DNA from: Gemmatimonadales bacterium
GTDB lineage: Bacteria; Gemmatimonadota; Gemmatimonadetes; Gemmatimonadales; GWC2-71-9
NCBI GenBank assembly: GCA_036555485.1
Contig: DATBLG010000005.1
Span: 902 to 64,901 of the forward strand
DNA length: 64,000 nucleotides
Reading direction: 5' to 3'
Under the pieces are notes generated by a model, which had not been told where the DNA came from, made no database searches, and worked only from the letters and a program-made list of their open reading frames with translations. Shown one piece after another: positions 2,749 through 53,733 of the stretch (position 1 is its first letter; each line of letters starts with the position of its first letter). A program made the position numbers and the translations under genes.

Positions 2749-5700
2749 CTAGCGTCTCCGGATTGTAAACGCCTGCAGCGAGTCGCCGTTGTTGGCTACG
2801 AGCACGGCATTCCCTGCAGGCGTGTTGATCAGGGCCAGGCCGGTGACGTCCAGCGGCGTGAGGAAGCCACTCTCGACTGGCGGCACCGGCGTGAAATGCC
2901 CGTGGCCGTCCCCCTTCAGCCAGAGGCCGTTCCCCGCATCGGCCCTGGGGGTGTTCGGCTCCGCGTCGTACAGGTTTCCCGCCACGATCAGATCGAGATT
3001 CCCGTCCGCGTCCACGTCATGCGCGATGATCCCTCTGATCGGGGAGAGTTGCGCCAGATTGGGCAACGGCGACGACGTGAAGGTCCCGTCGCCATTGTTT
3101 TGCAGATAGACACTGGCGAAGGTGTCCGCCTGATAGTGGACCGCCTGCCGCAATTGGGAGGCGCTGAACAGTTGGTGTATGGAAGCCGAGGCAAACGATG
3201 CGTAGGTCGGGAATCGCAACGGCAGCGTATAGATCGCCTTCCCCAGCCTCGCCAACCCGAACAAGGGATACTCGGTGCCGTCGATCTCCTGGGTGAGTAC
3301 GACATCCGTAGTCTGGTTGCCCGTGAAATCGAGCGCATAGACTCCGAATTTGCTGGCCGGTGACGTCGTGTACGTATGGTTCAGCCCCAGATTGCCGGCC
3401 ACCAGGTCCGGATGGCCATCGTGGTTGAAATCCCCCGCGGCGAGACTGAACCACCACCCCCGGGTCGCCGGCAGGCCCAACGATGCCGTCACGTCCCGCA
3501 GTCGCGTGCCCTCATTGCGATAGAACTGCAGCGGCATCCATTCCCCCGCCGTCACCAGATCCAGGCGCCCGTCGGCGTCAAAATCGATCCAGACCGCTGC
3601 CGTCACCATGCCCCCGGGGCGCATCAATTCCGGGGCGACCGCTTCGGTCACGTCCGTGAACCGGCCCCCATCATTCCGGAGCAGGTAGCTGCGGGTGGGA
3701 AAGGGATAGTTTCTGGGGACCAGTCGGCCACCGACGAACAGATCCAATCGGCCATCGCCGCTAAAGTCGCCAGCCGCGACACTCGCGGTGCTGGTGAGCA
3801 TGGGTGGCAGCGCCTGGGTGTCTCTCGCGAACCGGCCGCCTCCCTGATTGACATAGAGCCGGTCCTGCAACAAACGCGACACCGGTGAGTGGTGATACCC
3901 GCCGCTCGTCACATACAGGTCTTGTCGGCCGTCGCCGTCGGCATCGAAGAACAGGGCTCCCCAATCTTCGTACTCCTTGTCGGCCACCCAGGGTTGCCCG
4001 CGCGTGGATTCAACGAACCGGCCGTCCGCGCGCTGCTGAAACAGCCTTCCCGGCTCGCCTGCCCCCCCCCCGCCCCCAATGAACACGTCCCCGAGCCCAT
4101 CGCTGTCCACATCTCCCACCGCGAGCGGCGCGCCGTGGCTGGATGGCTCGTATGGCAGGAGGGGTTGCACGCTGTAGTCGATGTGCCCCGCTTGCCGGTG
4201 CTTGTACGGTAGCGCTCGGCGGGCATCCGACTGCTGGAACAAGAGGTGTCGGGTTCCAGGTGTCAGGTGCCAGGGACTACACCCTGACACCTGACACCCG
4301 ACACCTGACTCCTCACGAGCCGCATCTTCCTGTCGTACGGTCAACAATTGATCTACCGGCAAGTCAGTCAGTATCTGGGAGCGTCCATCCGGCCAGATCA
4401 CCTCCAGGGTGTCCACGCGCTTCGCGGGCCCCAATCCGAAGTGCGCCCGGTCATCCATGGTGGACAGGTACCCACGGTAGGGGGACTGGTAAAGGAATTG
4501 CCGTTGCCCCCCTGCCCGGAGGATCAGCGTCGCCCCGATCCCTCGTGGGTTGGTCGTGTTCCCCTGCAGCCGGATCTGCAGATAGTGATGCAGGTCGTCC
4601 GCGGGTTGAACGTTTTCATAGATCGAAGCGGGAGCATCGATGTTGTTGATGACGAGATCGAGCTTGCCGTCGTTATTGAGATCGGCGTAGGCGGCGCCGT
4701 AGCCAAACCCCGGTTGGTCCATTCCCCAGGATTTCGTTCTGTCCGTGAATGTCAGGTCCCCGTTGTTCTGGAACAGGTAGTTCGACAGGACGCGACCAGG
4801 CAATTGCTGCAGCAGCTCCAGTCCTCGGCGGTTCGCCGCGACCGTATCTCGCTCCCGGCGCAGCCCGAACATGGTCGTTTGGTAGTCGAACTCATTGACG
4901 GCTTTGGGATAGCCGTTGGTGATGAGAATATCCTTGAACCCATCGTTGTCGAGATCGCCGAACAGGGCGCTCCAGCTCCAGTCGGTGTAGGCGACGCCCG
5001 CCAGCCGGCTCACCTCACTGAAGAGGACATCGCCGTCAGGCGTAACGCCGTTGCTCAGCTGCAGCGTGTTCAAGTCAAAGTCCTGGCGAAACCCCCGAGT
5101 GCGGATATCCTCCACTCCGCCGAGGGAAGCGGCTCCACTCATCCGTTTTCGTCCGCTCAGGGCCTCCGGCATCATGTCGCTTTGCAGGATGTCGGGCCAG
5201 CCGTCATTGTTGAAATCGGCGATGTCAACGCCCATGCCGGCGAGACTCGTATGCTTGAGCCAGCGGGCCGCCTTGTCGGTGAACGTGCCGTTTCCGTTGT
5301 TGACATACAGGACGTCGTTGGGCGTGTCGTCGTTGGAGACGTAGATATCGGGCCACCCGTCCCCGTTGATGTCGCTGACGACGACGCCGAGTCCATACCC
5401 GACCTGCCGCAAGATCCCGGCTTCCCGGGAGACGTTGGTAAACGACCCGTCGCCGTTGTTGCGATAGAGCTGGTTGTAACTGCCGGAGCCCTGACTGCGG
5501 ATGCCCGCCGGGTGCATGGTCGCCACGCCACGCGCAAAATCCTCAGGCGAATTGCTGAGCAGATAGAGGTCGAGGTCGCCGTCCCGATCGTAGTCCAGAA
5601 ACGCGGCGTGCGTGGTGAAGCCGGTGTCCGCGATCCCGTATCGGGACGCGGCTTCGGTGAACGTGCGGTCCCGGTTATTGAGGAACAACAGGTTGGCCCG

Positions 5701-6117
5701 TTCATTGGGCTTGGACCATTCGGGTCCCGTGACGGACACGTAAATGTCGAGGTATCCGTCGCTGTTGATATCCACCATGGTTGCGCCGCTGGCACGCCCC
5801 CGCGTCATAACGCCCGCGGATTGCGTGACGTCCGTGAACCGCATGTCCCCGGTGTTCACATACAGGCGACTCGAGACCATGTTGCCGGTCAGGAACAGGT
5901 CGGGCAAACCGTCGTTGTCGATATCACCGACGGCCACGCCGCCGCCGTTGTACACGTAGACGTCGGTTTGCACGTTCAGCGAATCCGAGGTAGTGATGGT
6001 GTTGGCGAACGTGACGCCGGTTCGCGCCGGGCTCAGTCGCTTGAACAGTCCGGGTCCCTTTTCCCGGCCGCATCCGCCTAACCACAGAAGAGCGACGAGG
6101 AAACTGAGGCGCCGCAT
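2749..6117 (-). CDS. CRTAC1-family lipoprotein: FG-GAP/VCBS repeats, ASPIC/UnbV domain, second FG-GAP/VCBS block
   Basis: 1122-aa ORF with a lipoprotein signal (LLWLGGCG). It has many DxDxDGxxD FG-GAP repeats and a central UnbV_ASPIC-like segment (GIGATLILRAGGQRQ...FGLGPAKRVDTLEVIWPDG), followed by more FG-GAP repeats. Confidence 0.85.
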   Translation of the reverse strand: MRRLSFLVALLWLGGCGREKGPGLFKRLSPARTGVTFANTITTSDSLNVQTDVYVYNGGGVAVGDIDNDGLPDLFLTGNMVSSRLYVNTGDMRFTDVTQSAGVMTRGRASGATMVDINSDGYLDIYVSVTGPEWSKPNERANLLFLNNRDRTFTEAASRYGIADTGFTTHAAFLDYDRDGDLDLYLLSNSPEDFARGVATMHPAGIRSQGSGSYNQLYRNNGDGSFTNVSREAGILRQVGYGLGVVVSDINGDGWPDIYVSNDDTPNDVLYVNNGNGTFTDKAARWLKHTSLAGMGVDIADFNNDGWPDILQSDMMPEALSGRKRMSGAASLGGVEDIRTRGFRQDFDLNTLQLSNGVTPDGDVLFSEVSRLAGVAYTDWSWSALFGDLDNDGFKDILITNGYPKAVNEFDYQTTMFGLRRERDTVAANRRGLELLQQLPGRVLSNYLFQNNGDLTFTDRTKSWGMDQPGFGYGAAYADLNNDGKLDLVINNIDAPASIYENVQPADDLHHYLQIRLQGNTTNPRGIGATLILRAGGQRQFLYQSPYRGYLSTMDDRAHFGLGPAKRVDTLEVIWPDGRSQILTDLPVDQLLTVRQEDAAREESGVGCQVSGCSPWHLTPGTRHLLFQQSDARRALPYKHRQAGHIDYSVQPLLPYEPSSHGAPLAVGDVDSDGLGDVFIGGGGGAGEPGRLFQQRADGRFVESTRGQPWVADKEYEDWGALFFDADGDGRQDLYVTSGGYHHSPVSRLLQDRLYVNQGGGRFARDTQALPPMLTSTASVAAGDFSGDGRLDLFVGGRLVPRNYPFPTRSYLLRNDGGRFTDVTEAVAPELMRPGGMVTAAVWIDFDADGRLDLVTAGEWMPLQFYRNEGTRLRDVTASLGLPATRGWWFSLAAGDFNHDGHPDLVAGNLGLNHTYTTSPASKFGVYALDFTGNQTTDVVLTQEIDGTEYPLFGLARLGKAIYTLPLRFPTYASFASASIHQLFSASQLRQAVHYQADTFASVYLQNNGDGTFTSSPLPNLAQLSPIRGIIAHDVDADGNLDLIVAGNLYDAEPNTPRADAGNGLWLKGDGHGHFTPVPPVESGFLTPLDVTGLALINTPAGNAVLVANNGDSLQAFTIRRR
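4062..4071. repeat. C10/G10 homopolymer tract inside the CRTAC1 lipoprotein CDS
   Basis: Ten consecutive C on the plus strand, followed by gccccc. It encodes the GGGGG run of ...VFIGGGGGAGEPG... on the minus strand. Confidence 0.9.
4244..4312. repeat. Heptamer-armed inverted repeat (GGTGTCA / TGACACC units) lying in-frame in the CRTAC1 gene
   Basis: Left arm aggtgtcgggttccaggtgtcaggtg and right arm tgacacctgacacccgacacctgactcc. The arms are complementary, for example aggtgtcgggt pairs with acccgacacct. The element is 69 nt, i.e. 23 codons, translated as ESGVGCQVSGCSPWHLTPGTRHL. Confidence 0.75.
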
Positions 6118-6169
6118 GGGTTCTCCATCCGCCGAGTGAGACTGCTATATTGTGACAAAAGGGGGTCGC

Positions 6170-7440: not shown

Positions 7441-7453
7441 CGCGTTGCTTGAG

Positions 7454-16035: not shown

Positions 16036-17205
16036 GTGGCCAGCACCGTCGCCCCCACTCCCGCGGGGTCGGCCTTCACGAGCGCCGGCGCCATTCCCTG
16101 GCACCTGACCGCCGTTCTGTTCGCCGCTACCAGCGTCGTGGTCGGCGTCATCTGGGACATCTCGTGGCACCGTTCGATCGGACGGGACACGTTCTGGACC
16201 CCGGCCCATATGGCGATCTACCTGGGCGGTGTCGTGGCGGGGTTGGCGTGCGGCTGGTTGGTGCTGCGCACGACGTTCGCCGGATCGCCCGGGGAGAAGG
16301 CGGCGACCGTCCGGTTTTGGGGGTTCCGCGGGCCCCTCGGCGCCTGGGTGTGCATCTGGGGCGCGATCGCGATGATCACGTCCGCTCCGTTCGACAACTG
16401 GTGGCACAACGCCTACGGGCTCGACGTGAAGGTGCTGTCGCCGCCGCATGTCCTGCTCGCCCTCGGGTTCACGGGGATCCAGGTCGGTGCGTTGCTGCTG
16501 CTGGCGGCACGGCAGAACACCGTGACCGCCCACGATCCACACGCCCGGGCCTACCGCGTGATGTTTGCCTGCGCCGCGGGGCTGCTCGTCTCTACCATCG
16601 CGATCATGGGGTTCGAGTACATCGGCTTCCCAAACGAAGCTCACAACGGTCTCTATTACAAGATCTGCGGGGCGGCCTTCCCGATCTTGCTTTTGGCCGC
16701 CGCGCGCACGTCGACGCTACGCTGGCCCGCCACCACGACCGCCGCGACCTATGTCGCCGTGAACGTCCTGATGATTTGGACCCTGCAGCTGTTCCCGGCG
16801 ACGCCAAAACTCGCGCCGATCTACAATGCGCTGGACCACTTCGTCCCACCGCCGTTTCCGATCCTGCTCGTCGTCCCGGCGCTCGCGATCGACCTGGTGG
16901 TCCGTCGCGGGCCGGCAAGCGACTGGGGCCGCGCGGCACTCGCCGGGATCGGCTTTATCCTCGTGCTGCTCCTCGTGCAGTGGTTTGTGGCAGTGTTTCT
17001 CGTCAGTCCCAGTTCAGAGAATTTCTTGTTCGGCGCCCAGCGCTGGAACTACAACAGTCGACTGGGCCCCTGGCGCTACGAGTTCTGGAGGCTCCGAACC
17101 GATCCGTTGACGGCCGCCGACGTCGTCACGGCCGCAGGCCTGGCGGTCGCCTCCGCGCGGCTGGGTCTGTGGTGGGGCGCCTGGATGGCGCGCGTGAAAC
17201 GATGA
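16036..17205 (+). CDS. Polytopic integral membrane protein, unknown function
   Basis: 389-aa ORF with a GTG start and more than 10 predicted helices (WDISWHRSIGRDTFWTPAHMAIYLGG...). It has the same codon style as its neighbours. Confidence 0.7.
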   Translation: MASTVAPTPAGSAFTSAGAIPWHLTAVLFAATSVVVGVIWDISWHRSIGRDTFWTPAHMAIYLGGVVAGLACGWLVLRTTFAGSPGEKAATVRFWGFRGPLGAWVCIWGAIAMITSAPFDNWWHNAYGLDVKVLSPPHVLLALGFTGIQVGALLLLAARQNTVTAHDPHARAYRVMFACAAGLLVSTIAIMGFEYIGFPNEAHNGLYYKICGAAFPILLLAAARTSTLRWPATTTAATYVAVNVLMIWTLQLFPATPKLAPIYNALDHFVPPPFPILLVVPALAIDLVVRRGPASDWGRAALAGIGFILVLLLVQWFVAVFLVSPSSENFLFGAQRWNYNSRLGPWRYEFWRLRTDPLTAADVVTAAGLAVASARLGLWWGAWMARVKR

Positions 17206-18692: not shown

Positions 18693-18696
18693 GGAG

Positions 18697-18779
18697 CCGT
18701 CAGTCATCAGTCTTCAGACGTCAGTCTTGACACTCCCAGATCATCTGACAACGGATGACTGATGACTGATGACTGACGG
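18697..18779. repeat. Heptamer-armed long hairpin (TCAGTCA / TGACTGA units) just after the operon stop codon
   Basis: The left arm ccgtcagtcatcagtc (18697-18712) is the perfect complement of gactgatgactgacgg (18764-18779). Further imperfect heptamers continue inward. The element starts 5 nt after the TGA at 18690-18692. Confidence 0.8.
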
Positions 18780-18782
18780 TTC

Positions 18783-18819
18783 AGAAAAACCAAACCCGGC
18801 GCTAAAAGCTCGCCGGGTT
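18783..18819 (-). terminator. Hairpin with a U-tract on the minus strand (terminator-like; may act bidirectionally)
   Basis: 9-bp stem aacccggcg (18793-18801) / cgccgggtt (18811-18819). On the minus strand it is followed by tttggttttt. On the plus strand there is no T-tract. Confidence 0.45.
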
Positions 18820-19055
18820 GGCCGGTCGGGTGAGGTGGCCGTCACACCCCCTCCACGACCGTTACTGCATTGCGTTCAACCTGCCGCCGTCGCGCGGCGG
18901 CCTGTTGCATACCTCACACGGTCACGCGAGTTCCCGCTGGACGCCGCCAATCTGCCCGCGTTACGGGTTCGGCAGGTGAACACGGCGCAAGCGGCGTGTC
19001 AGGAAACCATGAAGCACTCACCGACCCCGCGCCGCGCGGTTACCATGAGAGGGCC

Positions 19056-26487: not shown

Positions 26488-26514
26488 GGCCTTCATATGT
26501 TAGCCTTCGCCGCC

Positions 26515-28380: not shown

Positions 28381-28413
28381 CAGTCGTCAGTCATCAGTCG
28401 CCAGCCGTCAGCA
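28379..28413. repeat. Single-arm heptamer array (5 x RYCAGYM) filling the ligD-to-hydrolase spacer
   Basis: atcagtc gtcagtc atcagtc gccagcc gtcagca. It occupies essentially the whole gap between the ligD stop (28416-28418) and the hydrolase ATG (28378-28380). Confidence 0.7.
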
Positions 28414-30953: not shown

Positions 30954-30981
30954 ATGTCACCATTCGTATAGTAGGTCCCCC

Positions 30982-31866: not shown

Positions 31867-31870
31867 CGCG

Positions 31871-34591: not shown

Positions 34592-34617
34592 GGTGCGTGG
34601 TGGGTGGTGCGTGGTCC
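34592..34617. repeat. Heptamer array GGTGNGT x3-4 in the convergent intergenic spacer
   Basis: ggtgcgt ggtgggt ggtgcgt ggtcc lies between the peroxiredoxin stop (34582-34584) and the tlpA stop (34618-34620). It has partial complementarity to gccacccgccgcacc at 34625-34639. Confidence 0.5.
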
Positions 34618-35133
34618 TTATCGCGCCACCCGCCGCACCGCCGCCTCGATATCCTGATCCGCACCGAGGCCGGTATAGGCGACTTTCCCGGCGCTATCCA
34701 GCACCACCACGTAGCTCGTCGATGGAGCCTGGAAGGCGCGTACCGCCCGACCATTGCCATCCCACAGGATCCGAAACGGCATTGGGTGCCGCGCCAGGTG
34801 ACGCTTGATGCCTGCCTGACTCTGGTTCACCGCCACGGCGACCACGACGAACTCCACCTGGTCCCCAAAGCGCGCGTGCGCGGCTGCCATGCGAGGGAAC
34901 AACGCCGCGCACAGCGGGCACCACGTGGCCCAGAACTCGATCAGCACCGGCTTCTTCCCGATGATCTGACCGAGGGCCACCGGGCGACCGTCCAGGTCCT
35001 CGATCGTCACCGCCTCAGGTCTTGTGCCGATGGCGATGCCGATCGCATCGTCCTGCGCGACCACATGACCCGGTGTACCGAGCGCGACCGCCAGTACGAA
35101 GCACACCACGCACGCCACACCCCGCACCATCAT
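34618..35133 (-). CDS. TlpA/ResA-like periplasmic thiol:disulfide oxidoreductase
   Basis: The ATG at 35133 forms an ATGA overlap with the ccdA stop. It has a signal/anchor (MMVRGVACVVCFVLAVAL) and the thioredoxin motif FWATWCPLC. The product is 171 aa. Confidence 0.85.
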   Translation of the reverse strand: MMVRGVACVVCFVLAVALGTPGHVVAQDDAIGIAIGTRPEAVTIEDLDGRPVALGQIIGKKPVLIEFWATWCPLCAALFPRMAAAHARFGDQVEFVVVAVAVNQSQAGIKRHLARHPMPFRILWDGNGRAVRAFQAPSTSYVVVLDSAGKVAYTGLGADQDIEAAVRRVAR

Positions 35134-36468: not shown

Positions 36469-39315
36469 CTAGGGCAGCTCGACGCCAATCTCCTCGAGAA
36501 ACATGGTCCCCCCACTATCTTTGCCGAACCGTTGCACCGCGCGTGTCAGCACCAGCCGATCGCGCGCCCGCGTCATCCCCACGTAGAGGAGCCGGCGTCC
36601 CTCTTCGATCTCTTCGCGCCGCGCTTCCTTCGTCGCCCAGTAGCCCGGCAACTCGTAGTCCTCCACCCCCACGATGTACACGCGCGAGAATTCCAGTCCC
36701 TTGGTGGAATGGAGGGTGAGCAGGTTCACACGGTCCGGATCGGCTTCCACTCCCTCGGACGATGACAAGGCCACCCGCTCGAGCAGCCGTTGGATCCCCG
36801 CGTCCAGGCCGTCCCCGGCATCGGGCTCGCTGGCGGCCACGAGTGCTTCGAGCCGCGCCACCGCCGACGGGTAGCGTTCGGCCGCGGTGCGATCGGCGCG
36901 CAGACGCTCCAGCAGGGCGTGGCCGCCGAGGCGCTCGATAACCTCTGCTTCGTCCGGCGCGTCGACGGCTGGTGTGCGCGACCGTTCCGCGCCGTAGAAC
37001 TCGAGGCAGTCACTGTAACGACCCAGCGCATAGGTGCGCGCCAGCTGGCGCAGCAAGCGCCGCTCGTCGGTCGGTGCCCGATCATCAGCCAGGGCAAGAC
37101 CGAGCCCGACATGGTCGAGCAGATTCACGAGGGCCGCCTTGCGCGCCCGGACGAGCTTGTGAGCTACGAGATGACGCAACACCCGAGCGAGCGTCAGCGC
37201 GTCGTCCAGGGCGTGGTGCGCGCGACCCTTGTCCACACCGAATCGTTCCGCCAGGTGCTCGAGCTTCGCGCTCTCGGAAAACAGCGCGCGCGCCAGCGGC
37301 AAGGTGTCGAAGCAGGTGAGCCCGTCGCCGCCATCGAGCCCGGCGGCGAGCCGCCGCAGTACCGGCACGTCGAACCCTTGCCCGTTGTGAGCGACGAGCA
37401 CCCGGTCACCCACGAACGCCCGGAACCGCGGCCACACCTCCGAGAACGACGGCTGGCCGACGAGGTCCGCATCCGCATACCCGTGCACCGCGGTCGCGGC
37501 GGCGGCCACGGATTGCTGCCGCGGCCGCACCAGCGAGTGGAACCGGTCCACCACCTCGCCGTCCTGTACCCGCACCGCGCCGATCTCGATCACCTCACAA
37601 GTCGCGATGTCGTTGCCAGTCGTCTCGAGGTCGAAGGTGACGCACTCCCGGAACATCTCGCCGAAGCCGCGCCCGTTGGCCAACTGCAGCGCCTTGAACA
37701 ATCGCACCACGATTTCCCCCGGCTCCTGCGGGTCGGCGCCGAGCAACAAATCCTCGGGCGCCGGACCGTCGTCCGGTCCGAGGTAGGTCACGACGCGAAC
37801 GAGCCCCGAGCGCACCAGCATCCCGCGCAGGGCGATTTCCAGACCGTGGTGCGGGACGATCCACACCCGCGCGCCCGTCACGAGCCGGTCCGCCAGATGC
37901 GCCGCTCCGGGATAGACAGCTGGGTCGGTCAATTCGTCGGCATGCTCCTCGAGCGGGTTCTTGTACGCCCCCATCCGCTGGGTGAGCAACTCCGCCACGA
38001 GACCGCGCAGCGACTCATGGCTCTGGCGCAGGGCACGCAGGTTTTCGACGTGAAACACGAAGCGCCACGCCTTCTTCGTATCGGGGTCGCTCGCATGGCT
38101 GTCGCGCGCGATTCGGCGCACGACCGCCAGCAAATCGTGGCCGGCGGCCGCGCCGACCGCGCGGATGCGCTCGAGCAGCTCAGCGGGGAGCAGCCGTTCC
38201 GCCAGCGCCTCGAGGGCCAGCGCGTCGTCCGGGTCGCGGATCACGCGCAGCGAGGCGATCACCTGGCCGATGACGTCGTCGTCCACGAGTGCGCGGCCGC
38301 GTGCCAGCCGACACGGTATGCCGGCTCGCAGGAGGTGGTTCTCCAGCTCCTCACCCAGGCGGTGATGCCGGTACAGCATCGCGACCTCGCCCCACCCGAG
38401 CCCGTGCTCCGCGCGGTCGCGCACCACGTCCTCGATCAGCCACGCCGCTTCCGCCGCTTCATCCGGGAAGCGGCGCACCAGGACGGGAAACGGGGAGTCG
38501 CGCACCGCCTCGATGCGCTTCTCGAACAGTTTCGGGTTGCACTCCACCAAGCGGCGCGCCGCCGCAAAGATCTGGCGCGACGAGCGTCGATTCTGGTCCA
38601 GCACGATCGGGTCGTCGATCCCGAACTCCTCGCGAAAGCGGCGCAATACGTCCGGGTCGGCCCCCGTCCACGAGAAGATCGACTGCTCGTCGTCGCCAAC
38701 CGCGAAGAAGCTGCCGTGCGGCTCCGCGAGGCGTACCAGCGTGTCGTACTGCGCGGGGTTCAGGTCCTGGAACTCGTCCACCAGCAGGTGGTCCCAGCGC
38801 GCGGCCACCGCGGCCGCGACGTCCGAATGTTCGGCAAAGAGGTCGCGCGTGAGTGCGACGAGGTCGTCGAAATCGACGACGTTGCGCGCACGGAGCGTCG
38901 CGAGGTAGCGGTCCAGCAAGTCCTGGTCCCCGCCACTCAGGTGAAACCCCTGGAGCCGGCGCCTGCCGAACTGCGTCAGCAGCGTGCTCATGCGCTTGCG
39001 GGCCACCCCGAGGCGGCGCAGCACGAGCCGCTGATACTCTTCGTCGGCCACGCCGAACCCGCGACGCAGCCCGAGCCGCTCACCGTGTACGCGCAGGATC
39101 TCGAGACAGAGGGCGTGCAGCGTACCGCGGGTGAGCAGCTCGCCCGCCGGGCCCACCTCGCGGCGCAACCGCGCGACGATTTCCTCGGCGGCCTTGTTGG
39201 TGAAGGTGACGGCGCAGATACGCGCCGGATCGGCGCGGTGACGATCGATCAGCTGGCGCACTCGCTCGATCAGGCAGAACGTCTTCCCTGCCCCTGGACC
39301 GGCGAGGACCAGCAC
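36469..39315 (-). CDS. UvrD/PcrA-like superfamily-1 helicase with an internal DnaQ-like DEDDh 3-prime to 5-prime exonuclease domain
   Basis: Helicase motifs: I (AGPGAGKT), II (VDEFQD), III (GDDEQSIF), V and VI (TLHSTKGLEF, YVGMTRARD). Exonuclease motifs lie between them at about 37168-37644 (FDLETTG, HNGQGFDV, HHALDDA). The coding signal continues upstream of the GTG at 39315 (see findings). Confidence 0.85.
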   Translation of the reverse strand: MLVLAGPGAGKTFCLIERVRQLIDRHRADPARICAVTFTNKAAEEIVARLRREVGPAGELLTRGTLHALCLEILRVHGERLGLRRGFGVADEEYQRLVLRRLGVARKRMSTLLTQFGRRRLQGFHLSGGDQDLLDRYLATLRARNVVDFDDLVALTRDLFAEHSDVAAAVAARWDHLLVDEFQDLNPAQYDTLVRLAEPHGSFFAVGDDEQSIFSWTGADPDVLRRFREEFGIDDPIVLDQNRRSSRQIFAAARRLVECNPKLFEKRIEAVRDSPFPVLVRRFPDEAAEAAWLIEDVVRDRAEHGLGWGEVAMLYRHHRLGEELENHLLRAGIPCRLARGRALVDDDVIGQVIASLRVIRDPDDALALEALAERLLPAELLERIRAVGAAAGHDLLAVVRRIARDSHASDPDTKKAWRFVFHVENLRALRQSHESLRGLVAELLTQRMGAYKNPLEEHADELTDPAVYPGAAHLADRLVTGARVWIVPHHGLEIALRGMLVRSGLVRVVTYLGPDDGPAPEDLLLGADPQEPGEIVVRLFKALQLANGRGFGEMFRECVTFDLETTGNDIATCEVIEIGAVRVQDGEVVDRFHSLVRPRQQSVAAAATAVHGYADADLVGQPSFSEVWPRFRAFVGDRVLVAHNGQGFDVPVLRRLAAGLDGGDGLTCFDTLPLARALFSESAKLEHLAERFGVDKGRAHHALDDALTLARVLRHLVAHKLVRARKAALVNLLDHVGLGLALADDRAPTDERRLLRQLARTYALGRYSDCLEFYGAERSRTPAVDAPDEAEVIERLGGHALLERLRADRTAAERYPSAVARLEALVAASEPDAGDGLDAGIQRLLERVALSSSEGVEADPDRVNLLTLHSTKGLEFSRVYIVGVEDYELPGYWATKEARREEIEEGRRLLYVGMTRARDRLVLTRAVQRFGKDSGGTMFLEEIGVELP

Positions 39316-42575: not shown

Positions 42576-42581
42576 GGTCGG

Positions 42582-47596: not shown

Positions 47597-48589
47597 GTGC
47601 GATCCGGCTTGATCGACCTCGCCGCTGCCCGCATGGGCGGCCGGGCCGTTCTCGCAAACGACGAGTTCTTCGCCCCCAAGGCAAATCTCCTCAAGCCGGG
47701 GCGTGGCGTGTTTGTCGAAGGGAAGTACACGAGCCGCGGCAAGTGGATGGACGGATGGGAAACGCGGCGGCGTCGGACGCCGGGCCACGACTGGTGTATC
47801 GTCCGCCTCGGTGTTCCCGGCGTGATCCGCGCCGTCACGGTGGATACGCACCATTTCCGCGGCAACCATCCGGAAGCGTGTTCGATCGAGGCCGCGGCAT
47901 TGCCGGGCACCCCGACGCCCGCTCGACTCCGTGCGCTGGGCACCGCATGGGCCGAAGTGCTGACCCGGAGCCCGCTCCAGGGGGATTCCGAGAACAACTT
48001 CCCGATCGCGAGCGACGCGCGGTACTCCCACGTCCGGTTGAACATCTACCCCGACGGCGGCGTGGCCCGGCTGCGCATCTGGGGCGAGGCCCGGCCGGAC
48101 TGGGCGCGCATCCGGACCGCGCGTACGCGAGTGGATCTCGTCGCCGTGCAGCACGGTGGTGTGCCGCTGGCCGCGAGCGATCAGTTCTTCAGTGAGCCGC
48201 TCAATCTGCTCTTGCCGGGACGGCCGGTCGACATGGGCGACGGCTGGGAGACCCGGCGCCGGCGCGGCCCGGGGCACGATTGGGTCGTGCTGCGCCTCGG
48301 CCACCGCGGCACGATCGACGAGGTCGTGGTGGACACCACGCATTTCAAGGGCAATTTCCCCGACAGTTGCCGCCTCGAGGGCTTGGACGCGCCCGAGCTC
48401 GACCCCACCGTGGCCCCCGACGACCGCGCGGCGTGGCGCGAGCTCGTGGCACGCACGCCGCTCAAGGCCGACACGCCGCACCGCTTTCGGGCGGTCGGTC
48501 GTTCAGGACCCGTGACGCACGTCCGGTTCAGCATGTTCCCGGACGGCGGAGTGGCCCGGCTGCGGCTGCTCGGGAAGCCGGTGGTGTGA
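47597..48589 (+). CDS. alc: Allantoicase
   Basis: This is the 3-prime part of track ORF 47051..48589. A GTG at 47597 gives 330 aa, a typical length. It has two allantoicase repeats, each with the DGWETRRRR motif. Confidence 0.8.
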   Translation: MRSGLIDLAAARMGGRAVLANDEFFAPKANLLKPGRGVFVEGKYTSRGKWMDGWETRRRRTPGHDWCIVRLGVPGVIRAVTVDTHHFRGNHPEACSIEAAALPGTPTPARLRALGTAWAEVLTRSPLQGDSENNFPIASDARYSHVRLNIYPDGGVARLRIWGEARPDWARIRTARTRVDLVAVQHGGVPLAASDQFFSEPLNLLLPGRPVDMGDGWETRRRRGPGHDWVVLRLGHRGTIDEVVVDTTHFKGNFPDSCRLEGLDAPELDPTVAPDDRAAWRELVARTPLKADTPHRFRAVGRSGPVTHVRFSMFPDGGVARLRLLGKPVV

Positions 48590-49092
48590 GCGCGGGAGTC
48601 CGGGCCGACGGCATTGCCCGCCATCTGAACGCGCTCGCCGAGCCCGCGGCTCGGGCGGCGCTGCTGCGCTGCTGCGGCTCGCGGAGCTGGGTCGAGCAGA
48701 TGCTCGCCGGGCGCCCGTTCGCCGATGACTCGGGTGTGTTCGCCACAGCGGAGCGCTGCTGGTGGTCGCTCGGGACGAACGACCGCCTCGAGGCGTTCGC
48801 CGCGCATCCGCGGATCGGCGAGCGCGCGGACGACACCTGGGCGCGGGCTGAGCAATCCGGCATGGCGGGCGCGGACATTGCCATGCGCCGAGCATTCAGC
48901 GATGGCAACCGCGCGTACGAGGAGCGCTTCGGACATGTGTTTCTCATCTGCGCCACGGGTCGGGGTGCGGATGACCTGGCCGCCGAGCTGCAGCGCCGGC
49001 TCGGCAACGATCCGGCGAGCGAGCTCCGGATCGCGGCCGGGGAGCAGGCGAAGATCACCCGACTACGACTCGAGAAACTGGTGACGACATGA
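48586..49092 (+). CDS. uraD: 2-oxo-4-hydroxy-4-carboxy-5-ureidoimidazoline (OHCU) decarboxylase
   Basis: The GTG at 48586 forms a GTGA overlap with the alc stop. It carries the motifs FAAHPRIGE and HVFLICATG. Confidence 0.8.
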   Translation: MSAGVRADGIARHLNALAEPAARAALLRCCGSRSWVEQMLAGRPFADDSGVFATAERCWWSLGTNDRLEAFAAHPRIGERADDTWARAEQSGMAGADIAMRRAFSDGNRAYEERFGHVFLICATGRGADDLAAELQRRLGNDPASELRIAAGEQAKITRLRLEKLVTT

Positions 49093-49424
49093 GCGGCATC
49101 ACGACGCACGTGCTGGACACCGCGCACGGCCGGCCCGCCGCCGGAGTCGCGGTTACCCTGTCAGTGATGGTGGGCGAAAGCTGGACAGAGGTCGGTCGCG
49201 CCGCGACGGGTGCGGACGGTCGCGTGCCGAACCTGCTCCCGTCACCAAGCGCCCGGGGTACCACCTATCGGCTACGATTCGAAATCGGTGCGTACTACGC
49301 GGCCCAGGGCATTGCCAGTTTTTATCCCGCGATCGAGGTGGTGTTCACCCAGCAGGACGATCGCCACCATCACGTGCCGTTGCTCGTGAGTCCGTTCGGC
49401 TACTCGACCTACCGCGGTACCTAG
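49089..49424 (+). CDS. uraH: 5-hydroxyisourate hydrolase (transthyretin-like)
   Basis: 111 aa starting at an ATGA overlap. It has the motifs THVLDTAHGRPAAGV and HHHVPLLVSPFGYSTYRGT. Confidence 0.85.
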   Translation: MSGITTHVLDTAHGRPAAGVAVTLSVMVGESWTEVGRAATGADGRVPNLLPSPSARGTTYRLRFEIGAYYAAQGIASFYPAIEVVFTQQDDRHHHVPLLVSPFGYSTYRGT

Positions 49425-49428
49425 CGCC

Positions 49429-50619
49429 GTGAGCGCGCACCTCGCGGAATGGCTCAGCCTCGCGCTGCGCTGGATCCACATCATCACCGGCGTGTCGTGG
49501 ATCGGCACATCATTCTATTTCAACTGGCTGAATGGACGGATTCGACCGCCGGACGCCCCCGAGCCCGGCGTCACCGGCGAGCTCTGGTCGGTGCATGGCG
49601 GCGGGTTTTACCGCGTCGTGAAATACAGCGTCGCGCCCGAGCGCCTGCCGCGCACGCTGCACTGGTTCAAGTGGGAGGCGTACGCCACCTGGCTTTCCGG
49701 CGCGTCGCTGCTCGTGCTCCTGTACTATTTCGGCGCGCGGGTGAACCTGCTCGATCCCGGCGTCTCCTCGATCGCCCCCGGCGCGGCGGTCGCCGTCAGC
49801 ATCGGCACGATCCTCGTCGCCTGGCTCGTCTACGATGTGCTGTGTCGCTCGCCGGCGGGGTATCGGCCCGTTGTGCTGGCGACGCTAGGCCTGGTACTCG
49901 TCACGGCGCTTGGCTATGGCCTGGCGCGCGTATTCAGTGCTCGCGCCGCCTATTTGCACGTCGGTGTCGCCCTCGGCACGATCATGGCGGCGAACGTGTT
50001 CCGGGTGATCATCCCGGCGCAACGGGAAATGGTGGATGCGTTGGCGGCGGGGGGCGAGCCGGACGCGGCACGCGGCCGTCAGGCGGCGCTGCGTTCGTTG
50101 CACAACAACTATCTGACCCTACCCGTGCTGTTCGTGATGGTGAGCGGCCACTACCCCGCGACGTACGGCAGCGCCTGGGGCTGGGCCATCCTCGCGGGAT
50201 TGTTCGTCGTCGGCGTCCTGACGCGCCACTGGTTCAATCTGCGCAACGCCGGGATTCGCAACGCCTGGCTGCTCCCCGCGGCTGTGGTGGGACTCATCGC
50301 GTTGGCGCTCGTGACGGCGCCGCGCTCCAGCGGTATGGCCTCACCGGACGGCGCCGTGTCGTCGTTCGCCGACGTGCGTATCATCATCGCGCGGCGCTGC
50401 GCTCCGTGTCACTCCGCAGCGCCCACCTTCCCGGGCGTCACTGCGCCACCGGCCGGGGTGGCGTTTGACACGCCGGAGCAGATTCGCGTCCGCGCCTCGC
50501 GCATCGCCGAGCGGGTGGTCGCCCGGCAGACGATGCCACTCGGCAACGTCACGGGGATCACTCCGGAGGAGCGGGATCTTCTCGGGCGGTGGATTCAAGC
50601 GGGGGCTCCGCTCCGGTGA
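49429..50619 (+). CDS. puuD: Membrane-bound urate hydroxylase PuuD (cytochrome c-containing)
   Basis: 396 aa. The N-terminus WIHIITGVSWIGTSFYFNWL is typical of PuuD. It has several TM helices and a C-terminal CAPCH heme c motif. Confidence 0.8.
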   Translation: MSAHLAEWLSLALRWIHIITGVSWIGTSFYFNWLNGRIRPPDAPEPGVTGELWSVHGGGFYRVVKYSVAPERLPRTLHWFKWEAYATWLSGASLLVLLYYFGARVNLLDPGVSSIAPGAAVAVSIGTILVAWLVYDVLCRSPAGYRPVVLATLGLVLVTALGYGLARVFSARAAYLHVGVALGTIMAANVFRVIIPAQREMVDALAAGGEPDAARGRQAALRSLHNNYLTLPVLFVMVSGHYPATYGSAWGWAILAGLFVVGVLTRHWFNLRNAGIRNAWLLPAAVVGLIALALVTAPRSSGMASPDGAVSSFADVRIIIARRCAPCHSAAPTFPGVTAPPAGVAFDTPEQIRVRASRIAERVVARQTMPLGNVTGITPEERDLLGRWIQAGAPLR

Positions 50620-50640
50620 CCTGCAGCAACAGACTCCCAG

Positions 50641-50942
50641 GGGTGGGCTAACCCCGGGGCCATGCCCCGGGGTTCAGGGATTGGCACACGTATGCCAGGT
50701 CGTGAATTGCCTAGGGTGGGTTAACCCCGGGGCCGTGCCACGGGGTTCAGGGCAAGCACACGTATACCCTGGCCGTGAATTGCCACAGGTGGGTTAAGCC
50801 CGGGGCGTTGCCCCTGGGTTCAGGGAATGTCACACGTGACCCCAGGACGTGAATTGCTGTGGGTGGGTAACCACGGGCTAAGCCCCGGTGTGGGAATGGC
50901 ACACATTGAACCCCGGGCCGTGGGCCCGGGGTTAACCCACCC
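50641..50942. repeat. Tandem array of four units of about 73 bp, each with a GC-rich hairpin; the last unit ends in an inverted copy of the unit start
   Basis: Unit starts (gggtggg, with aggtggg at the third) are at 50641, 50714, 50787 and 50861. Each unit contains a hairpin such as aaccccgggg-ccatg-ccccggggtt (50650-50674), followed by cacacgt...gtgaattgc. The array closes with gttaacccaccc (50931-50942), the reverse complement of the unit start. Confidence 0.85.
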
Positions 50943-50959
50943 GGACAACGTCGACGAGC

Positions 50960-51350
50960 TCAGCCACCGCCGCGGCCACCTCCTTCCCGAATGCCGATCC
51001 GAATCGCCAGTGCACCGACGGGTCCCATTATGGCTGCGCCCACTATCGGGGTCCATGGCAACTGGGTCCCCCATTCGGCGGGCGGAAAGAGTGTTAAGAC
51101 AGTGAGGAAAGCGTATGGGAGTATTGCGACGAATCCCACCAGCATCGCCCCGGCAGCGTGCCGGCACAGTGGCAACAGGAGCCCCACGATTCCGCCTGCA
51201 ACAATTCCACCCTAGGTAGCCACCGATTAGGGCGATATAGGAAGTGTTGTACTCCTGCAGTAGTTCTGGCCCTCTGACGAGAACGAGCAGCGTCGCCAAT
51301 ACCGAAATGACTAGTGCGAACCAGAGACCCCAAGTGAGTCCCGTTTTCAT
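50960..51350 (-). pseudogene. Small 4-TM membrane protein gene interrupted by a 1-nt frameshift (or assembly error), in a low-GC patch
   Basis: From ATG 51350 the translation is MKTGLTWGLWFALVISVLATLLVL...YIALIGGYL. It continues sensibly only after a frame change near 51209-51216, as GGIVAGGIVGLLLPL...AIMGPVGALAIRIGIREGGGRGGG*, with the stop at 50960. The total length of 391 nt is not a multiple of 3. Confidence 0.55.
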
Positions 51351-51408
51351 GTTTGATCCGAGTGAGCCCATTGGACCCAAGCCCCTCTTTTCCTCCAAAC
51401 GGACTAGT

Positions 51409-52368
51409 TCACACCTCAGCCACGTCGAACAACACCTTCATCGTCCCCGGCCGCTGCGCATGGTCGAACGCATCGAGCGCTCGCTCCAGTGGGTAATGCG
51501 CCTGCACCAGCGGTAGCACGTCCACCTTCTGTTCAGCAAGCACGGCGAGTGCCTTTGGAAACGGGCCGCAGCGCGACCCGATGATCGTGAGCTCGTGCAC
51601 CACGATCGCGGATGCGTCGAGCGTCAACTGGTCGGCGTACGTGCTCTTCATCACGAGCGTGCCGCGGGGACGCAGCGCCCGCTGGGCGAGGCCGAAGCCG
51701 AGGTGATTGCCGGTGCATTCGACCGCGATGTCGAATGAGCCCGCGGGGATCGTCTCAGCCGCGGTTGACGCAATCCCGCGCTCGGTGAGCAGGGTGAGCT
51801 TTGGTCCGTGGCGGCCGACCACCAGGAGGTCGCAGTCGGTGAGCGCCAGCGTTTGCGCCACGAGCTGCCCCAGCTTTCCATCCCCGACGACGAGCACCCG
51901 GTCCCCGGGCGCGATGTGGACCTGCTCCTGGATCTCGAGTGCCGCGGCGAGCGGCTCGGTAAAAACCGCCGCGTCCTCGGATACACCGTCCGGAACCAGA
52001 TGGAGGTTTTGGAGCGGCAGCGTGAGATACTCGGCGAACGCGCCGTGCCGGTTCACGATGCCAAGTACCGTGCGACGCTCGCAGTGCGTGCGTCGGCCGG
52101 CTCGGCAGGGACCGCATGCGCCGCACGTCGCGTTGATCTCACCCACCACGCGCCGGCCCATCAGCGCGTCCGGACCGCGCTCCACCACGCCGACGAACTC
52201 GTGGCCCAGCACCCCGGCGTAGGGATAGTAGCCGCGCGCCAACTCGACGTCGGTGTTGCAGATGCCGGCACGGAGCACGCGCACCAGCGCTTCGTCCGCC
52301 GGTGGCTCCGGCACCGGCACGCTATGGCGGAGCCGGAGCTGGCCTCCCTCGAGCCAGACGGCCTTCAC
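51409..52368 (-). CDS. Zinc-dependent medium-chain alcohol dehydrogenase family protein
   Basis: 319 aa matching MDR motifs (GICNTDVE, GHEFVG, CGACGPC structural-zinc loop, VVGDGKLG). Confidence 0.85.
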   Translation of the reverse strand: MKAVWLEGGQLRLRHSVPVPEPPADEALVRVLRAGICNTDVELARGYYPYAGVLGHEFVGVVERGPDALMGRRVVGEINATCGACGPCRAGRRTHCERRTVLGIVNRHGAFAEYLTLPLQNLHLVPDGVSEDAAVFTEPLAAALEIQEQVHIAPGDRVLVVGDGKLGQLVAQTLALTDCDLLVVGRHGPKLTLLTERGIASTAAETIPAGSFDIAVECTGNHLGFGLAQRALRPRGTLVMKSTYADQLTLDASAIVVHELTIIGSRCGPFPKALAVLAEQKVDVLPLVQAHYPLERALDAFDHAQRPGTMKVLFDVAEV

Positions 52369-53186
52369 GCCTGGAGTTCGGGCAAGGCGAAGAAGAGCAC
52401 GCGCGCCATCACGCGCTTGCGGTATTCAGCCGTGGAGCGGATGTCGTCGATCGGCGTGACGTCCTGCTCGATCGCCGGCAACAGGTCTTCCGGCGCGCGG
52501 GGCGCCGGCCCGTCGGCGAGCCGGCGTTCGAGTGCGGGACAGCGGCGAATCGTCGGCGCCATGCTCGCCGCGACGACGCGCCACCCGGCCGACGAGCGGG
52601 TGACGGCGAGACCGATCTTGGCGATGGCCTGAGCGCGTCGCGGGCCGATTTTCTCGAACACCTGAGCGGCATAGGGCCGGCGGGGCACACGGATCGCGAC
52701 CACGAGCTGGTCCGCGGCCCGTCGCATCTGCTTGTAGCCCGTGTAGAAATCGGCGAGCGGCACCTCTTCGCGGCCGCGGCGGGATTCGAGCACGACTACC
52801 GCATCGTAGGCCATCAGCACCGGCACGCCGTCGGCCGCGGGCGAGGCGTTCACGATGTTGCCGGCCCACGTGCCGCGCGTCTGGATCTGGACCGCGCCCA
52901 CCTGCCGCGCCGCGCGGACGAGCAGCGGCAGCTCGCGCGCCGCGCGACGGTCCGTGACCACGTCCCAATAGGTCGCGAGTCCTCCCAGGACGAGCTCCGC
53001 GTCGGTCCATTGCAAGCCCTTCAACTCGGCGACGCGGGAGATGTCGACATACGTCCGGTCGTGTTCCGCGGACCGTACAGGCCAGTGTACCAGCAGGTCG
53101 GTCCCACCGGCGATCGGGATGGCCTCCGGATGGTCGGCCAGCATGGCCAGAGCCTCCGCCTTGCCCTGAGGCTGGAGCAGGTTCAC
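52365..53186 (-). CDS. Molybdenum hydroxylase FAD-binding (medium, CoxM/XdhB-like) subunit
   Basis: ORF 52365..53249. A GTG at 53186 forms a GTGA overlap with the small-subunit stop. It has the FAD-binding motif PIAGGTDLLV and a CO-dehydrogenase-flavoprotein C-terminal pattern. Confidence 0.8.
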   Translation of the reverse strand: MNLLQPQGKAEALAMLADHPEAIPIAGGTDLLVHWPVRSAEHDRTYVDISRVAELKGLQWTDAELVLGGLATYWDVVTDRRAARELPLLVRAARQVGAVQIQTRGTWAGNIVNASPAADGVPVLMAYDAVVVLESRRGREEVPLADFYTGYKQMRRAADQLVVAIRVPRRPYAAQVFEKIGPRRAQAIAKIGLAVTRSSAGWRVVAASMAPTIRRCPALERRLADGPAPRAPEDLLPAIEQDVTPIDDIRSTAEYRKRVMARVLFFALPELQA

Positions 53187-53629
53187 GATCGCGCCTCGAG
53201 CGCCGCCGTGATCCCGTCCACGATGCCGTCGTAGCCCGTACAGCGGCACAGGTTACCGGCCATGAGCTCCCGGATCGTATGAGTGGTGAGCAGGTCGCGG
53301 TGCGACTGGATCCAGCAGGCCGTCATGGCGACGCCGGGAGTGCAAGCGCCGCACTGCGTCGCTCCGTGGACGAGCAGCGACTCGAGCGCGGCCGGATCGA
53401 GCGATTCGACCGTTTCCACGCGTGCTTCGCGCACCTGGTACGCCGGCACGAGACAGGAGTTGACCGGCAGCCCGTCCAGGTACACGGTGCACGCGCCGCA
53501 CTCCCCTTCCCCGCACCCTTCTTTCGTTCCCGTAAGGCCGAGCCGGTAGCGCAAAGTGTCGAGCAAGCGTTCGGTGGGGTCGACAGAGACCGTGACTGGT
53601 GCCCCGTTTAGAGTAAAAGTGAACGTCAA
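53183..53629 (-). CDS. Molybdenum hydroxylase 2x[2Fe-2S] small subunit
   Basis: It has the cluster motifs CGEGECGACTV and CGACTPG...CRCTGY. A TTG at 53629 gives (M)TFTFTLNGAPVTVSVDP, the usual N-terminus of this family. The ATGs further upstream (53710, 53731) lie inside the repeat element. Confidence 0.75.
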   Translation of the reverse strand: MTFTFTLNGAPVTVSVDPTERLLDTLRYRLGLTGTKEGCGEGECGACTVYLDGLPVNSCLVPAYQVREARVETVESLDPAALESLLVHGATQCGACTPGVAMTACWIQSHRDLLTTHTIRELMAGNLCRCTGYDGIVDGITAALEARS

Positions 53630-53733
53630 TGCGGAGTGCGGAATGCGGAATGCGGAATTGGCCGTTCCGGGCGTCGCATCGCGCTTCGACTCTCCCTTGT
53701 CATTCCGCATTCCGCATTCCCCATTCCGCATTC
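53628..53733. repeat. Heptamer-armed hairpin (GCGGAAT / CATTCCG units) between the large and small subunit genes
   Basis: The left arm gcggagt gcggaat gcggaat gcggaat and the right arm cattccg cattccg cattccc cattccg form a 19-bp perfect stem (53640-53658 with 53702-53720) around a 43-nt loop. The large-subunit stop codon (53700-53702) lies at the start of the right arm. Confidence 0.85.

Follow-up and report, generated by a model that had tools for sequence, protein, structure and literature searches.

Heptanucleotide repeat arrays, some paired as long hairpins, recur at the same gene positions across a lineage of Gemmatimonadales

Tandem arrays of a 7-nucleotide (nt) unit are a described yet poorly understood class of bacterial repeat; the choice of a 7-nt unit, the formation of inverted pairs, and any role of the arrays have, to our knowledge, been without an explanation for more than three decades. 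Here we describe such heptamer arrays in a 64-kb stretch of DNA from a soil bacterium of the order Gemmatimonadales (contig DATBLG010000005.1; the whole stretch is referred to below as the window) and follow them through its relatives. The closest known case is the GGGAATC repeats of Xanthomonas campestris and X. axonopodis, reported along with the GGGGA(C/T)T repeats of Nostoc (Rehm et al. 2015, PMC4692102). In the GC-rich Xanthomonas genomes, these repeats commonly consist of about four tandem 7-nt units, are enriched in noncoding DNA, mostly between co-directional genes and ≤50 bp from a start or stop codon, and include 70 to 75 convergent inverted pairs per genome with the potential to form stem-loops; between the two species, location and type (single array or inverted pair) are usually retained, while length is variable (PMC4692102). 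A second case is the TAACTGA direct repeats of marine Beggiatoaceae, some Cyanobacteria, and Bacteroidetes, which occur in 2 to 6 copies, are mostly intergenic with a fixed orientation, place stop codons in all three frames, and in their largest class finish 1 nt before a start codon (MacGregor 2015, PMC4679880). As summarized in these two papers (PMC4679880, PMC4692102), Mrazek et al. 2007 found heptanucleotides to be the commonest long repeats in large, GC-rich genomes of nonpathogens, and polymerase slippage was proposed as the repeat source; heptamers of the short tandemly repeated repetitive (STRR) type are known from Calothrix PCC 7601, as cited in PMC4692102. No published description of heptamer repeats in Gemmatimonadota was found in the literature searched.

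The window was scanned for tandem arrays of periods 4 to 15 with one scoring rule, and the counts were compared with those from 100 third-order Markov simulations of the window. Period 7 gave 8 arrays, against a simulated mean of 0.39 and a simulated maximum of 2. Period 6 gave 3 arrays (simulated mean 0.45, maximum 4), periods 4, 5, 8 to 13, and 15 gave 0 or 1 each, and the period-14 signal is an echo of period 7. Copy numbers, taken from Tandem Repeats Finder, are 3.3 to 4.7 per array. Direct reading and Tandem Repeats Finder confirmed the period-7 arrays at all six sites named in the original prediction (an earlier reading of the window made from its sequence alone), and the scan put their number above chance. 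The arrays are listed here by window coordinate:

4243 to 4275, minus strand: first arm of site 1, GGTGTCA/TGACACC units (Tandem Repeats Finder 4244 to 4274, 4.4 copies).
4282 to 4314, minus strand: second arm of site 1 (Tandem Repeats Finder 4283 to 4313, 4.4 copies).
18216 to 18250, plus strand: site 2, single array of GTCAGYC units (Tandem Repeats Finder 18216 to 18245, 4.3 copies).
18694 to 18725, plus strand: left arm of site 3 (Tandem Repeats Finder 18700 to 18726, 3.9 copies).
18751 to 18782, plus strand: right arm of site 3, (GATGACT)n (Tandem Repeats Finder 18754 to 18776, 3.3 copies).
28380 to 28412, minus strand: site 4, single array (Tandem Repeats Finder 28380 to 28411, 4.6 copies).
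29359 to 29375, minus strand: seventh site, absent from the earlier list, a short in-frame (AAGGGGG) array from the period scan.
34592 to 34615, no strand assigned: site 5, (GGTGCGT)n (Tandem Repeats Finder, 3.4 copies).
35101 to 35128, minus strand: degenerate GGTGCGT-like array at the 5' end of a TlpA-like gene.
53628 to 53658, minus strand: arm of site 6 by the coxS-like start, GCGGAAT/ATTCCGC units (Tandem Repeats Finder, 4.4 copies).
53701 to 53733, minus strand: coxL-like arm of site 6 (Tandem Repeats Finder, 4.7 copies).

Three of these sites are full inverted repeats, as had been proposed, but the stems are longer than the 11 to 19 bp first suggested, with arms of 31 to 33 nt that are 82 to 94% complementary. 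Folded as RNA, the three long hairpins (sites 1, 3, and 6) have energies of -44 to -65 kcal/mol and z-scores, calculated against shuffled sequence, of -4.5 to -7.7. At site 1, arms of 33 nt that are 82% complementary enclose a 6-nt loop (-51 kcal/mol on the plus strand and -56 kcal/mol on the minus strand), and the array lies in frame within a gene for a 1,122-amino-acid (aa) FG-GAP/UnbV_ASPIC protein (2749 to 6117, minus strand), in the linker between its halves. The site 3 hairpin (arms of 32 nt, 84% complementary) begins 2 nt past the stop codon, at 18692, of a 495-aa gene (17205 to 18692, plus strand) whose product had no Pfam match, and its right arm adjoins, on the minus strand, a terminator-like element that is conserved. 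Site 6 has arms of 31 nt that are 94% complementary, a loop of 43 nt, and a fold of -62 to -65 kcal/mol; it spans a junction inside an operon, between a coxL-like gene for the large subunit of a molybdopterin dehydrogenase (53700 to 55952, minus strand) and a coxS-like gene for the 2Fe-2S small subunit, and the arm at 53701 to 53733 codes the C-terminal tail (..IENAEWGMRNAE*) of the large subunit.

The remaining sites had been taken for single arms, which holds for sites 2 and 4; neither has local structure (z 0.08 and -2.1). Site 2 is in frame in the same 495-aa gene, where it encodes the peptide SSPQSSAVSSQQ; its orientation is that of the site 3 left arm and is inverted with respect to the site 3 right arm, about 500 nt off. 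Site 4 exactly occupies the 35-nt spacer between the LigD stop codon (28416 to 28418) and the ATG of an alpha/beta-hydrolase gene (28378 to 28380) and reads on the minus strand as (GCTGAYR)n, ending ...GACTGATG. Site 5 is more than a single arm: lying between convergent genes for two thioredoxin-fold proteins, one peroxiredoxin (Prx)-like (plus-strand gene, ending at 34584) and the other TlpA-like (minus-strand gene, ending at 34618), it pairs with 34622 to 34634, the last codons of the TlpA-like gene, whose stop codon falls in the loop (-35.8 kcal/mol with the neighboring gene end, z -4.8). The degenerate array at 35101 to 35128, directly after a GTGA overlap with an upstream DsbD-like gene, may be an inverted partner of site 5 at a distance. 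The seventh array falls in the linker that separates the ligase and primase-polymerase domains of LigD, so that 3 of the 7 window sites are in frame inside genes. As the original prediction had it, the heptamer differs from site to site while the architecture stays constant, which is not the pattern of a single REP (repetitive extragenic palindromic) consensus. Its further claim that the units place stops or starts in all three frames stands only for units of the TCAG and GAATGCG types, and for one strand: sites 2, 3, and 4 each have one strand with stops in every frame, and ATG occurs in all frames in the site 3 right arm (plus strand, there together with TGA) and the site 6 arm at 53701 to 53733 (minus strand). 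Sites 1 and 5 have neither.

Period-7 arrays are strongly over-represented in the Gemmatimonadales lineage, where they run to 3 to 8 units. We counted arrays in about 1.9 Mb of metagenome-assembly fragments centered on three genes (loci are given L numbers below); because all of these loci center on the same three genes, orthologous arrays are nonindependent observations. In 725 kb from close Gemmatimonadales relatives arrays of period 7 numbered 71, those of period 5 only 3, and those of period 8 only 4; 596 kb of metagenome loci around a second gene gave 37, 6, and 6, respectively. The corresponding counts in 483 kb from distant Gemmatimonadota and outgroups were 2, 2, and 4. For arrays with at least 3 perfect copies, period 7 accounted for 19 and periods 5 and 8 for 0 to 3. 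Plain 2-copy duplications of 7 nt exceed the trend only about 1.6-fold; the bias is one of expansion or retention of arrays rather than of their birth, and an excess of new 7-nt duplications was dropped as the source. The arrays thus have the properties of heptanucleotide simple repeats: at least 3 head-to-tail copies of 7 nt, an abundance above composition that is specific to the period, and a copy number that varies between genomes.

The arrays are also unevenly placed with respect to genes. Position statistics were computed away from the targeted loci and rest on gene calls from a simple self-written codon-usage caller, which makes them approximate. Of 41 such arrays, 59% are mostly outside genes, compared with 9% of random positions, and 71% are ≤30 nt from a called start or stop, compared with 10%, in agreement with the predicted location at gene boundaries or in in-frame linkers; the majority lie between co-directional genes. 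Arrays of periods 6, 9, and 12 fall inside genes, as codon repeats would. In 13 of 19 hairpin-bearing species, the TGA of coxL overlaps an in-frame ATG or GTG of coxS inside the hairpin loop, so that both arms are translated as protein tails. G-rich units resembling ribosome-binding sites (GGGGAAG, GACGGGG, CGGGAAA) occur just 5' of start codons and precede the coxM start, at the coxS/coxM junction, in five species. Arrays of (GCTGAYR)n run straight into an ATG at site 4 in all four species compared and also in L006 and L010. Many of the arrays seem to be seeded from local signals.

As judged from orthologous loci, each array keeps its own locus, at the same gene position in species whose proteins are 55 to 90% identical, while copy number, unit sequence, and the presence of one or both arms all vary between species. 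The original description of six copies of a family, if taken to mean dispersed copies, was not borne out, each array being bound to its locus and recurring at orthologous positions. The site 1 orthologs are all single proteins of about 1,100 to 1,130 aa, most of which encode a hairpin at the equivalent linker position, with hairpins found in orthologs of 74 to 90% identity. One clade has GGTGTCA units and the peptide ..SGVGCQVSGC..TPDTRHL.., another GGGATGC units and the peptide ..MRDARCGMR..IPHPASR.., a difference that was verified on the DNA of three contigs. Since the two clades differ in peptide and share the hairpin, conservation applies to the periodicity of the DNA and to the stem and not to the peptide. 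It had been considered beforehand that the arrays might be low-complexity protein segments conserved in orthologs; this is true of their positions and not of their peptides, it being the 7-nt DNA periodicity and the hairpin that persist.

The other sites vary in similar ways. In the site 2 orthologs, a 7-residue SRQPSAV period corresponds to 21 nt, or three GTCAGCC units, and is expanded by 7 residues (21 nt) in L081 and by 14 residues (42 nt) in L119; it is missing in distant orthologs. Orthologs of site 3 retain one arm (right or left), both, or none, and in more distant orthologs the stop of the 495-aa gene is immediately followed by other periodic hairpins, whose units are unrelated and whose period is occasionally 8 or about 10. 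At site 4, where gene order is alike, there are 5 units in the window, 8 in L166, 4 in L167, and 3 in L168, the length difference between L166 and L167 is exactly 28 nt, and in all four species the array ends in ..GCTGATG, the ATG of which is the start codon. Site 5 is partly conserved, with a remnant and a hairpin in L166, nothing in L167, and a different unit in L168; clear arrays are present in all three at the position of 35101 to 35128, and the LigD linker has an orthologous array in L167 and a hairpin in L168. L161, a contig of the window's own species (99.7% identical, found via the hydrolase gene adjoining site 4), has a site 4 array identical to that of the window, and L162 and L163, from two different samples, share the same hairpin.

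Site 6 has the deepest set of orthologs, with a heptamer hairpin at the equivalent junction in about 19 other Gemmatimonadales species whose large subunits are 70 to 82% identical, and arms of 1 to 5 units. Two species have a single arm, in a few one unit remains of each arm, and in about a dozen the stop and start simply overlap as ATGA or GTGA. When reference genomes were scanned with the large-subunit protein, the window fell in Gemmatimonadales. L001, the closest relative and the best match to the window (metagenome-assembled, assigned to Gemmatimonadaceae, gene order as in the window, DNA identity 89 to 93%), is without the hairpin and keeps ..CAGGAATGACCACC.. with a GGAATGA remnant; by its appearance, this is a last unit that has decayed and become joined to the start of the small subunit seen in the loop of L041.

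Two observations concern hairpins of other kinds. A perfect 28-nt palindrome, GTAGGGGCGCAGCATGCTGCGCCCCTAC, replaces the heptamer hairpin at the coxL/coxS junction of L023 (6217 to 6244), L026 (12197 to 12224), and L032 (11928 to 11955). It occurs once in each of these loci, nowhere else in the 168 loci, and not in the window at up to 3 mismatches; given the single occurrence per locus and the absence from the window, this GTAG...CTAC palindrome gives no sign of a dispersed REP family. Hairpin arms with other periods are present in distant Gemmatimonadota, at L148 (past the stop of the 495-aa ortholog), L160, and L118 (10283 to 10387), built from units of 8 nt (ACGCAAGG), about 10 nt, or a 14-nt double unit; hairpins with periodic arms are thus not strictly confined to heptamers.

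The two arms of site 6 change together. Consensus units differ by species (GCGGAAT, GCGGATT, GCAGAAT, GCGGAAC, GCGGAGT), and both arms have the identical consensus in 16 of 21 loci and differ by one base in four more, with stems that are 79 to 100% complementary. Single-unit variants, by contrast, were confined to one arm in 43 cases and present in both in 13, several of the latter in flanks outside the arrays. With single-unit variants mostly unmatched, the arms stay alike through whole-unit variants spreading in both, and point-by-point compensatory selection was dropped as the main signal. In a neighbor-joining tree of one protein, the large subunit (CoxL), the hairpin-bearing species all fall within one clade, interspersed with hairpin-less species, and unit types form no clean groups. 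This pattern fits one old origin of the site 6 hairpin followed by many losses and repeated unit turnover, and repeated gains may also be compatible with this single-protein tree.

Set beside the described systems, the arrays share with the Xanthomonas repeats their bias toward noncoding DNA, their proximity to starts and stops, and their inverted pairs (sites 1, 3, and 6, and site 5 with the neighboring gene end), and the GGAAT core of GGGAATC resembles the GCGGAAT unit of the window. Unlike Xanthomonas, which has one G-rich, G-quadruplex-forming family, the window has at least five unrelated families, and its units GGTGTCA, GTCAGYC, GGTGCGT, and GCGGAAT are without GGG tracts; only some arrays of the relatives (GGGGAAG, GGGAGCG) are rich in G tracts. 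The in-frame sites (3 of 7) likewise differ from the Xanthomonas description, and the comparison across species at 55 to 80% protein identity, the joint change of arms, and the gene junction in the loop go beyond that study. The (GCTGAYR)n-ATG arrays (site 4, L006, and L010) have the CTGA core and the position of the Beggiatoaceae repeats, but there a single unit dominates and 170 sets include one inverted pair, whereas here units are many and hairpins make up about half of the sites; orthologous loci of distantly related species were not compared in that study. Long simple repeats of the STRR type can likewise include several unit families in one genome, and hairpin pairing, orthologous persistence, and concerted arm change do not appear in their descriptions as summarized in the two papers. 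What sets the present case apart is the phylum, the presence of at least five unit families of non-G-quadruplex type in 64 kb, the high share of hairpins, hairpins in frame in coding linkers, and a depth of orthologs that exposes the concerted change of both arms.

We consider, with a probability of roughly 60%, that the arrays are heptanucleotide microsatellites of the STRR or long-simple-sequence-repeat type that lengthen through slippage and undergo concerted evolution at tolerant sites. The steps that would lead from slippage to concerted evolution are drawn from comparison between species. Seeds would be provided by G-rich, Shine-Dalgarno-like units before starts and by TGA- or ATG-containing units at stop/start junctions, and replication slippage would then add or remove 7-nt steps; a slippage-like mechanism fits the copy-number differences at orthologous loci (3 to 8 units at site 4; +21 and +42 nt at site 2). 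New unit variants would spread along an array and between arms through slippage and template switching or conversion in the hairpin. Selection would act as a mere filter on survival, leaving arrays in intergenic spacers, in tails at stop/start overlaps, in the N-regions of signal peptides, and in interdomain linkers, and inside genes only frame-keeping changes, such as steps of 21 nt, would survive. More speculatively, stems of 25 to 33 bp, once formed, would probably act on mRNA, as intergenic barriers or processing sites or as terminators lacking a U tract between convergent genes, and the coxL/coxS stem, with the stop/start overlap in its loop, could impose translational coupling. Of the generating mechanisms proposed in the original prediction, slippage thus agrees with the copy-number differences, and a dedicated enzyme found no supporting evidence, the approximately 50 window genes scanned including neither a transposase nor a REP-associated tyrosine transposase (RAYT).

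Several points weigh against this account. Slippage alone leaves both the period of 7, rather than 5 or 8, and the inverted partners unaccounted for. Near-perfect stems of 25 to 33 bp are retained across species at 70 to 80% protein identity, and unit families of the TCAG/GCTGA, GGAAT/GGATT, and GGGGAAG types recur at unrelated loci; stem persistence and recurring families could reflect a selected function or a binding factor. The nonperiodic palindrome that takes the coxL/coxS slot in three species hints at a need for a hairpin, of whatever kind, at this junction. The same-species comparison consists of one contig (L161), whose array is identical and shows no copy-number difference, and the position statistics depend on a crude gene caller.

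These points lend some weight to a serious, though less likely, alternative in which the arrays are selected regulatory elements acting on mRNA, their 7-nt period being read by a lineage-specific RNA- or DNA-binding factor or by the ribosome. Arrays before a start would tune or couple translation, and paired arrays would set the relative expression of neighboring genes, whether by RNase III processing, a block to 3' exonucleases, or termination-reinitiation. Positions retained over long evolutionary distances and the long persistence of near-perfect stems speak for such elements, and the details at junctions point the same way: the coxL stop and in-frame coxS start overlap in the loop in 13 of 19 species, (GCTGAYR)n ends exactly at an ATG at site 4 in four species and in L006 and L010, much as the TAACTGA repeats of Beggiatoaceae stop 1 nt short of start codons (PMC4679880), G-rich ribosome-binding-site-like units stand 5' of the coxM start in five species, and a nonperiodic palindrome fills the slot in L023, L026, and L032. 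However, the units are unrelated between sites, which makes a single sequence-specific reader unlikely, single-unit mismatches are mostly uncompensated on the partner arm, and hairpins within coding linkers are hard to fit. L001 and about a dozen other species, moreover, do with a plain ATGA or GTGA overlap.

Slippage and selection may also be combined, in that the paired arrays would be a self-renewing, selected regulatory device, an mRNA or DNA hairpin kept at gene junctions and domain boundaries; we regard this as unlikely. The stem would then be continually rebuilt by slippage and inter-arm conversion, so that structure lasts while sequence turns over, the loop overlap at coxL/coxS would tie translation of the second gene strictly to the first, and a lineage-specific feature of replication or repair would set the 7-nt step.

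It is very improbable that the arrays are small nonautonomous mobile elements, of the REP/REPIN type or like MITEs (miniature inverted-repeat transposable elements), or the products of a dedicated nuclease or transposase elsewhere in the genome. The hairpin architecture and intergenic placement would suit such an origin, as would the similar unit families at several loci of one genome (window sites 2, 3, and 4; TCAGCTG hairpins in L006 and L010) and the presence of site 6 in the window and its absence in L001. Yet the arrays have no common consensus, conserved ends, or conserved loops, and one locus keeps its array in many species while copy number shifts by whole units. No target-site duplication was found at the boundary between window and L001 (site 6) or between window and L088 (site 3); both boundaries show replaced or decayed sequence rather than the duplication expected of a MITE, and L001 resembles a decayed remnant rather than an empty site. 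Genes for a transposase, a RAYT (TnpA-REP, Y1), or an HUH/Y1 nuclease were not found among the approximately 50 genes of the window searched with Pfam.

In E. coli, REP hairpins influence mRNA stability. As outlined in accounts of REP sequences, bacterial interspersed mosaic elements (BIMEs), REP doublets forming hairpins (REPINs), and RAYT transposases (PMC3333891, PMC3116915, PMC3733652), REP sequences are short intergenic hairpins, sometimes within operons, as some of the arrays here are. In those accounts they follow one genome-wide consensus of 20 to 40 nt, which in many cases carries a GTAG or CGTC tag, and they are RAYT associated; the window arrays, on the other hand, are without a shared consensus, have periodic arms, are bound to their loci, and have no RAYT gene among the window genes. 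Membership in the REP, BIME, or REPIN families was rejected, there being no shared palindrome consensus and the units differing between sites. Intrinsic terminators were rejected as a class because no T run follows any of the hairpins and because site 1 is intragenic and site 6 lies within an operon; sites 3 and 5, between convergent transcripts, may be terminators without a U tract. The arrays are not CRISPRs, their 7-nt units being directly adjacent with no spacers, as opposed to repeats of 23 to 50 nt with unique spacers. The whole window gave no match to Rfam at gathering thresholds, a permissive Rfam scan around site 3 returned chance matches to microRNA precursor families alone (E 0.2 to 0.85), and ARAGORN found no tRNA or transfer-messenger RNA (tmRNA) in the window.

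Chance low-complexity sequence, protein-level repeats, and assembly artefacts are excluded as the source of the arrays: although two short arrays are weak (29359 to 29375 and 34592 to 34615) and some GC-rich matches in relatives look compositional, the 8 arrays exceed the simulated maximum of 2, the enrichment is at period 7 only, which codon structure cannot yield, the site 1 clades keep the DNA hairpin with wholly different peptides, and arrays recur in independent assemblies (L161; L162 and L163).

This lineage offers a natural experiment, in that identical gene positions can be tracked through dozens of species, and with them the change of units in both arms, shifts in copy number, and passage in frame through coding sequence. 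Two ideas thereby become testable, namely concerted evolution by slippage and template switching and selection for an RNA hairpin. Through the arrays, proteins also acquire odd tails and linkers, and the calling of start and stop codons becomes less clear, which is relevant to the annotation of metagenome-assembled Gemmatimonadota genomes.

Further observations were made in the window. Arrays of the same family lie inverted about 500 nt apart in two places (18216 to 18250 versus 18751 to 18782, and 35101 to 35128 versus 34592 to 34615), where they bracket a C-terminal domain (sites 2 and 3) or a whole small gene (35101 to 35128 and site 5). Such pairs are present in L081, L087, L119, and L166 and not in L168; they could pair long-range in mRNA. 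Adjoining site 3 is a noncoding block of about 80 nt (18786 to 18870, minus strand, possibly extending to about 18990) that hardly varies among 10 related metagenome contigs. Its minus strand has two hairpins, the second being CCCGGCG..CGCCGGG followed by TTTGGTTTTT, which resembles an intrinsic terminator. The block had no Rfam match, and as all its stem positions are invariant there is no support from covariation; it may represent a conserved small RNA that would be convergent with the 495-aa gene.

The peroxiredoxin-like (AhpC/TSA) gene next to site 5 (33997 to 34584, plus strand) is split by an in-frame TGA at 34237 to 34239, exactly at the expected catalytic cysteine (..VVLAFFFKARTRG-TGA-TVQMNAYRDQY..). 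The TGA and nearly identical flanks are kept in L166, L167, and L168, and a small hairpin, GCGTAC..GTACGC, lies about 20 nt 3' of it. Gene callers divide here what is probably one peroxiredoxin-like protein containing selenocysteine.

At 50637 to 50888, within 50552 to 51420, a 73-nt unit is present in 3.5 tandem copies with 77% matches, each containing a palindrome, AACCCCGGGGC-CAT-GCCCCGGGGTT, and a second small hairpin. A CRISPR was rejected here because the whole unit repeats. The stretch of about 870 nt around these repeats, which includes a 192-aa open reading frame with no Pfam match, is missing in L001, where gene order is otherwise the same and identity is about 90%.

Genes for LigD, Ku, and a DinB-type (IMS family) polymerase lie near site 4 (28416 to 32704 and 25264 to 26496), and a UvrD-RNase T fusion is encoded at 36469 to 39315. 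Ku, LigD, the DinB-type polymerase, and the UvrD-exonuclease fusion are ordinary repair genes, and there is no evidence linking them to the arrays. A purine-breakdown cluster at 47609 to 55952 comprises allantoicase, OHCU decarboxylase, HIU hydrolase, urate oxidase, and the molybdopterin dehydrogenase whose subunit junction carries site 6.

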